This document shows, piece by piece, positions 1 to 6,263 of a DNA stretch of 18,476 bases; position 1 is the stretch's first letter; each line of letters starts with the position of its first letter. The position numbers were made by a program, and so were the translations under genes. Source of the stretch: Macrostomum lignano (taxonomy: Eukaryota); contig NIVC01005245.1 of assembly GCA_002269645.1 (NCBI GenBank), forward strand, positions 1-18,476, written 5' to 3'. Under the pieces are notes generated by a model, which saw nothing but the letters and a program-made list of their open reading frames with translations, was not told the origin of the DNA and made no database searches.

Positions 1-6263
<6,263 letters not shown>

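Follow-up and report, generated by a model that had tools for sequence, protein, structure and literature searches.

An exact histone H3 tip at the start of TIR-bearing ROCO proteins from three invertebrate phyla: a possible integrated bait

The flatworm Macrostomum lignano possesses a gene whose protein begins with MARTKQTARK, and the residues following the initiator Met are those of histone H3 1-9 as encoded by the animal's own H3 genes. Judged by its sequence, this protein belongs to the kinase-less TIR-ROCO family of invertebrates, and three annotated relatives from an annelid and two bivalves carry the same tip. The presence of an exact tip of 8-9 residues on separate branches in three phyla suggests that the H3 tail is used outside chromatin. 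We tentatively posit that the tip is an integrated bait for histone-targeting enzymes, most plausibly those of intracellular microbes.

In the window, i.e., the whole stretch of 18,476 nucleotides that was analyzed, the start codon and H3 residues 1-9 are found on the minus strand at 6234..6263, reading ATG GCT CGA ACA AAG CAG ACA GCC AGG AAA from 6263 to 6234. This ATG is the first in-frame start, lies in the context gccATGG and is preceded by an in-frame TAA. From residue 10 onward (AAPPNLFP...) the protein differs from H3, and no Pfam histone family was matched in the whole protein (E<=0.05) or in exon 1 (E<=0.1). Sequence and Pfam thus bear out the preliminary description of an H3 mimic that is encoded by the host and sits, in register, at the N-terminus of a multi-exon protein other than a histone. 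The coding pattern for ARTKQTAR matched 34 times in the 764-Mb genome and the reversed control not once, so the match is not due to chance; the same 34 places were found with the pattern for MARTKQTARK, which adds Met and Lys9. Four of these places are copies of the TIR-ROCO gene (contigs C5245, C4265, C408 and C1610), 96-100% identical around exon 1 and identical in MARTKQTARK. Of 30 loci that were translated, 28 are H3 genes (27 full-length, one truncated) and two the TIR-ROCO gene, while the other four places comprise two of the TIR-ROCO gene and two with H3-type codons. The TIR-ROCO gene is hence the only non-histone gene found to code for ARTKQTAR in this genome, with the motif at codon 2. 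At its supported start, MARTK follows the rule M-[AGSCTPV]-R-x-K that defines H3TM starts. The conserved ARK(S/T) of an H3K9-type (HP1-binding) mimic is not present, K9 being followed by Ala. Among the H3 loci themselves we observed a variant with the tail changes S-M-G-A-K-A-P-R-K-R and T-P-L-V (L018, L026, L037), which on several contigs is oriented opposite to a canonical H3 gene about 2.2 kb away, and a copy (L042:1500-1610) whose frame ends after 35 residues near the contig end.

The transcript start was inspected in contigs of four sequencing runs from four studies (RNA type presumed), which were compared over window 5665-8600 and display joins, not expression level or strand. The 108-nt GT-AG intron 1 is skipped in all four runs, and the contigs continue into exon 3. 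In one of the four, a 22-nt non-genomic 5' end is joined at an AG acceptor (6344..6345, minus strand). It equals the 3' part of the 35-nt M. lignano spliced leader, whose sequence is given in PMC8629364, and occurs at 58 further places in the genome. The 80-nt 5' leader seen in the run contigs (6264..6343, minus strand) contains no ATG, and in two of the four runs it shows a 5-nt indel polymorphism at 6274, which fits a non-coding stretch. An upstream coding exon was ruled out, as the spliced leader is joined 80 nt upstream with no intervening ATG, and an N-terminal extension from the spliced leader's own AUG was ruled out because that AUG is out of frame and opens a 9-codon uORF closing at 6317. 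The public model PAA83725.1 (3,733 aa) has identical N-terminal residues. The gene is spliced and receives the spliced leader, its protein does begin with the motif, and the earlier proposal of 6263 as the start with no coding exon before it holds.

The protein had previously been credited with more than 700 aa in at least nine exons; its multi-exon nature stood, but the complete gene comprises about 34-35 exons and encodes about 3,730-3,770 aa, only its first nine exons fall within the window, and the copy there is frameshifted at 6049. Thirty-four GT-AG exons of the C408 copy form a chain with one open frame of 3,772 aa, which shares start and end with PAA83725.1; the latter differs in three acceptors and one extra small exon. 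This single open frame together with one public model also rules out a two-gene operon. The first two junctions are read-checked, and the later exons follow from GT-AG borders, the open frame and the public model. All window exons lie on the minus strand. Coding exon 1 (5935..6263; 110 aa in intact copies) encodes the H3 tip and then a Gln-rich and acidic linker, exon 2 (5683..5826) has both junctions in all four runs, and exon 3 (5133..5258), with an acceptor taken from unmatched run-contig ends, begins the family's N-terminal LRR-like unit (ITDxGIxWL). They are followed by exon 4 (4893..5040; GT-AG, open frame, public model), exon 5 (4313..4497; public-model acceptor, with 4530 as the alternative in the chain), exons 6 (3165..3281) and 7 (2032..2231), both from the GT-AG chain and the public model, exon 8 (1064..1291; public-model acceptor, with 1330 as the alternative in the chain) and the 5' part of exon 9 (1..629; public-model acceptor), where the contig ends. 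The exons for the SPRY-like, LRR, Roc, COR and TIR regions and the CaaX-like end are found on other genome copies, beyond the window contig.

One base is missing from the window copy at 6049..6050 (minus strand), so that its frame as assembled stops after 86 aa. Over window 1-680 plus 6049, comparison with the C408 copy revealed nine deletions of one base each, eight of them within exon 9 and close to the end of the contig. Assembly errors are the most likely cause, as the base at 6049 is present in all four runs and in the three other genome copies and the eight others cluster at the contig end, where the contig is low in quality. Elsewhere in the window, long simple and minisatellite repeats in the introns at 2290-3150, 3430-4000 and 5340-5670 and at 16460-18476 produce many spurious open frames. 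A divergently oriented multi-exon gene with ankyrin repeats, presumably resembling a TRPV channel, occupies 8538-16352 on the plus strand and starts about 2.2 kb upstream of the TIR-ROCO gene.

The protein of roughly 400 kDa is composed, in this order, of a degenerate Roc-COR, a Cys-rich unit, a weak SPRY match (Pfam E 0.034), LRR, Roc, COR, TIR and a CaaX-like end. Pfam matches above cut-off were obtained for Roc (1e-19), COR-A (6e-24), COR-B (3e-29), TIR_2 (3.5e-18) and LRR_8/LRR_14. Roc followed by COR marks it as a ROCO protein, and LRRs before Roc with TIR after COR place it in the LRR-Roc-COR-TIR subfamily; the architecture, which the preliminary description had not recognized, is thus a recognizable one. 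No kinase family and no PHD, ADD, chromo, Tudor or MBT domain was matched by Pfam in the full-length protein. The GTP-binding motifs of Roc are intact (GLGGVGKTS as P-loop, WDFAGQ, GTHSD). In the last TIR, the glutamate E3266 within SANCMMEF aligns with Glu in 108 of 111 homologues, and we take it to be the putative catalytic position of NADase-type TIR domains. The polybasic C-terminus KKNRSKVCSVQ, encoded by the last exon of the C408 copy (L045:4124-4387), is CaaX-like, with Cys at -4 in 92 of the 113 homologues. A C-terminal CaaX is a prenylation signal, and this ending suggests that members of the family may be prenylated.

When the profile of the family's N-terminal half was aligned with the true Roc-COR, hhalign returned 97.8% (E 8.5e-13, 442 columns), and the family therefore carries a degenerate second Roc-COR. 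The M. lignano protein matches the N-half profile at aa 147-235 (iE 1.2e-15), 657-1064 and 1079-1164. An HMM of the true Roc-COR detects the degenerate copy weakly, in two of 111 sequences at iE<1e-3. Two homologue alignments (A1, A2) were set aside, in which the N-half had been pulled onto the C-terminal Roc. We found no description of such a tandem pseudo-GTPase arrangement, i.e., a degenerate plus a true Roc-COR, in the literature searched. The Cys-rich unit (exon 12 of the C408 copy, L009:6051-6404) has ten invariant positions, nine Cys and one Gly, in 37 sequences, and its model has a pLDDT of 72 with a confident core. Compared with solved folds, this model gave no Foldseek match and at best VIA Z 2.6 (rmsd 3.1 over 55 residues), which is no evidence for a new fold.

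The LRR-to-TIR region was used to search proteins of 2,053-6,533 aa for relatives. Of the 120 matches listed, the first 113 constitute the TIR-ROCO family, and core identity is 32-40% over most full-coverage matches. The kinase-less relatives bear database names such as 'pats1-like' and 'roco5-like'. Their N-terminal halves vary in domain content: 34 of the 113 carry MBT and 23 carry SPRY, with PLAT, C2 and PF12777 as further elements. Three of these long homologues start with MARTKQTAR, namely those of the annelid Owenia fusiformis (CAH1772675.1, 3,850 aa, start MARTKQTARASKGK) and of the bivalves Mercenaria mercenaria (XP_053405100.1, 2,389 aa, start MARTKQTARQSTGGKAP) and Ylistrum balloti (XP_060062845.1, 2,759 aa, start MARTKQTARRS); these tips are known from annotation alone, each from a single gene model in a cluster of 1. 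H3 residues 1-8 are identical in all four carriers, with K, A, Q or R at residue 9, which indicates that HP1 or H3K9me reading is not what is conserved. The Mercenaria start matches 15 of the first 16 residues of H3. Downstream of the tip, a homologous N-module is common to the four carriers. In Owenia, a complete Ras-family GTPase domain (aa 21-189, Rho-like by eye) is located directly behind the tip and is a candidate for a second bait.

Outside these carriers the tip is lacking. A 6-of-8 match to it, anywhere in the sequence, was found in none of the other 110 of the 113 homologues, nor in 120 shorter Roc matches and 98 further cluster members, many of them partial. It is likewise absent from 53 further long cluster members, from the nearest SPRY-type orthologues and from a bivalve protein that shares 86% identity with the core of the Mercenaria carrier. 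The first exon of the nearest M. lignano paralogue begins with MDKNFLSKK and has a similar Gln-rich linker. The tip is thus dispensable for the family, and the expectation that the 9-mer would be invariant in orthologues failed, also with regard to residue 9, which is A, Q or R in three carriers. The paralogue's public model is without its first exons; these are present on contigs C2342 and C2440 and give a different N-terminus. A database search with exon 9 returned four matches, and three among 1.84 billion representatives, all poor models of the same gene with no sister-species orthologue of the N-half among them, and in the ESM Atlas residues 1-40 gave only unnamed matches under 0.9.

In order to place the carriers, a tree of the Roc-COR-TIR core was built from 111 rows, with P0226, P0227, P0243 and P0244 of the 113 homologues left out for short core alignments. 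The four carriers need four changes on this tree, all of them forced by well-supported branches, and their nearest neighbors have no H3 tip. A single clade of the four was rejected (p-AU 2e-71), as were the pairs Mercenaria-Ylistrum and Macrostomum-Owenia, in an AU test that covered 34 of the 111 rows with a quick method under LG+G4 without mixture. The tip appears to have been either repeatedly gained or patchily kept, as the tree is compatible with gains or losses. Within the 108 Met-starting homologues, M-[AGSCTPV]-R-x-K starts are confined to these three relatives. At the human rate of this loose start (48 of 20,996; PMC8166343), three or more among 108 would occur with P = 0.002, so that chance recurrence is unlikely even under the loose motif, and the 15 of 16 matching residues in Mercenaria argue for capture rather than drift.

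The codon comparison that had been suggested to separate exon capture from convergence speaks against a fresh copy and is compatible with a lost donor. Against every H3 codon class read, five to eight of the nine tip codons differ (5-9 nt in 27) with no amino-acid change, and the H3 classes differ mutually by one to seven codons. Recent copying from a present H3 gene is ruled out by these 5-9 nucleotide differences, and a donor H3 gene that was since lost is possible. Gene-wide, two copies are separated by 63 silent and 30 replacement changes, a dN/dS of about 0.16, and under this average constraint all of 20 replacement sites would stay unchanged with a P of about 0.04. The codon test is weak by itself and only adds to the cross-phylum evidence. 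The tip is likely selected.

With regard to function, the repeat sensor, NTPase switch, TIR effector and membrane anchor of these proteins have the layout of an intracellular receptor. The variable N-terminal half with host domains, the parallel with plant NLRs and the docking of a bacterial enzyme on H3 favor a bait: a bacterial methyltransferase effector docks on H3 Thr3-Ala7 (PMC10653858), a span that lies inside the conserved residues 1-8. Following established rules, removal of Met would free Ala1 as in H3, and prenylation of the CaaX-like end would anchor the protein at the membrane. Histone-targeting enzymes could then bind the copied H3 1-8 docking surface, modify it or cleave it. Such engagement may release the N-terminal pseudo-Roc-COR from the active Roc-COR, upon which the freed TIR domains would assemble and then signal or cleave NAD+. 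The tip probably arose when 5' ends of H3 genes were captured repeatedly and then eroded until residues 1-8 were left. If the tip is a bait, it would offer a ligand-level handle on a large uncharacterized TIR-ROCO family and point to histone-targeting microbes of marine invertebrates. As the host appears to be a laboratory flatworm, the idea is amenable to experiment. Antibodies against H3K4 or H3K9 marks could cross-react with the H3-tip protein.

Although a bait falls short of an even chance in our assessment, we rank it above four other explanations. The next is a regulatory switch of the host, in which its own H3 writers and erasers would mark the tip through K4 methylation, T3/T6 phosphorylation and R2/R8 methylation, and one of its readers, perhaps a sibling ROCO with MBT repeats, would set activity or turnover. 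The conserved span holds exactly the R2, T3, K4, T6 and R8 sites, in vitro binding to K4me3 readers and NuRD is known for human N-terminal mimics (PMC8166343), and MBT repeats occur in those 34 family members. However, none of the four carriers has an MBT match, and a switch should persist in orthologues, where the tip is patchy, which renders this explanation somewhat unlikely. Less probable is that the family needs only a positive N-terminus as a membrane or import signal, with the abundant H3 sequence as a convenient donor. Starts rich in Lys and Arg are indeed common among the Met-starting relatives (37 of 108 with at least four K/R in residues 2-13), and residue 9 varies among carriers. 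Charge is not required, though, since 39 of the 108 have zero or one K/R there, and the uncharged A1, T3, Q5, T6 and A7 are kept in all four carriers while the silent sites differ from all H3 classes read.

It is improbable that the tip acts in the nucleus as a decoy or self-recruiting ligand for chromatin readers with PHD, chromo or Tudor domains, as the preliminary description had proposed when it spoke of titrating such readers or joining them. The exact register and a free Ala1 would satisfy three PHD-binding rules (PMC8166343), and an N-terminal fragment, once released, could reach the nucleus. Against this stand the size of the protein, its polybasic CaaX-like end and signaling architecture, the lack of any chromatin domain found by Pfam, and a K9 that is not conserved among carriers. 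The least probable account, and a very doubtful one, takes the M. lignano tip for a neutral remnant and the other three starts for annotation artefacts in which gene predictors joined H3 pseudogene fragments to the family. The Owenia, Mercenaria and Ylistrum models are singletons and most relatives have no tip, as this would predict, but in M. lignano both spliced contigs and a spliced leader support the start, the other tips have a residue 9 unlike that of H3 and lead straight into family-type linkers or a GTPase domain, and three independent mis-joins onto one family are improbable.

The literature searched, with most subscription papers and supplements outside its coverage, contained no description of an H3 tip on a ROCO protein or of this gene. 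G9a/GLP, LIG1, influenza NS1 and SARS-CoV-2 ORF8 contain histone mimics of four to five residues in internal or C-terminal position. Like them, the TIR-ROCO tip reproduces a short linear H3 motif outside the histones; unlike them it is N-terminal, and the K9 part is its least conserved. The known host mimics of H3 are short motifs on nuclear proteins, and the TIR-ROCO tip departs from both features. N-terminal H3 mimics are already known as H3TMs (VRK1, BCL11B, PCLAF and others; Chen et al., 2021, PMC8166343), so that, as far as the available text of that study goes, the new aspect is an exact tip of 8-9 residues on TIR-ROCO proteins of three phyla. H3TMs likewise are non-histone proteins starting with M-small-R-x-K, in which removal of Met would expose R2 and K4 at a free end resembling that of H3. 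In contrast, a loose match of four residues suffices to define H3TMs, and chromatin proteins are over-represented among them, whereas the TIR-ROCO tip matches nine of nine residues (eight of eight in the relatives) and its carriers are predicted to be membrane-anchored and belong to three phyla and separate branches.

Closest in architecture are the kinase-less LRR-Roc-COR-TIR proteins that an Aplysia survey lists as possible novel TLR-like signaling components (PMC9334734). Members of this subfamily share with the M. lignano protein the order of LRR, Roc, COR and TIR and a CaaX-like end. The available portion of the Aplysia description reports MBT and EF-hand extras and makes no mention of an H3 tip, a duplicated degenerate Roc-COR or a CaaX end. 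ROCO proteins of brown algae have been proposed as immune receptors (PMC11378527), and plant NLRs carry integrated decoy domains (Kroj et al., 2016, PMC5067614). The NLRs resemble the TIR-ROCO carriers in their sensor-NTPase-effector layout, to which host-derived pieces were added repeatedly and independently. On the TIR-ROCO scaffold, too, a host-derived piece recurs, with four tips for which one clade is rejected and gains and losses are indistinguishable. The two systems differ in that NLRs switch through NB-ARC and TIR-ROCO proteins through a Roc-COR GTPase, and in that the added piece of the latter is a histone tail of 8-16 residues with a putative recognition role. By this analogy, which we regard as more speculative than the bait itself, membrane-anchored TIR-ROCO receptors may work like integrated-decoy NLRs, with flatworm, annelid and bivalve lineages independently armed with an H3 tip as a sensor of pathogen enzymes directed against chromatin. 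Should the tip be a bait, the integrated-decoy principle would extend from plants to animals.
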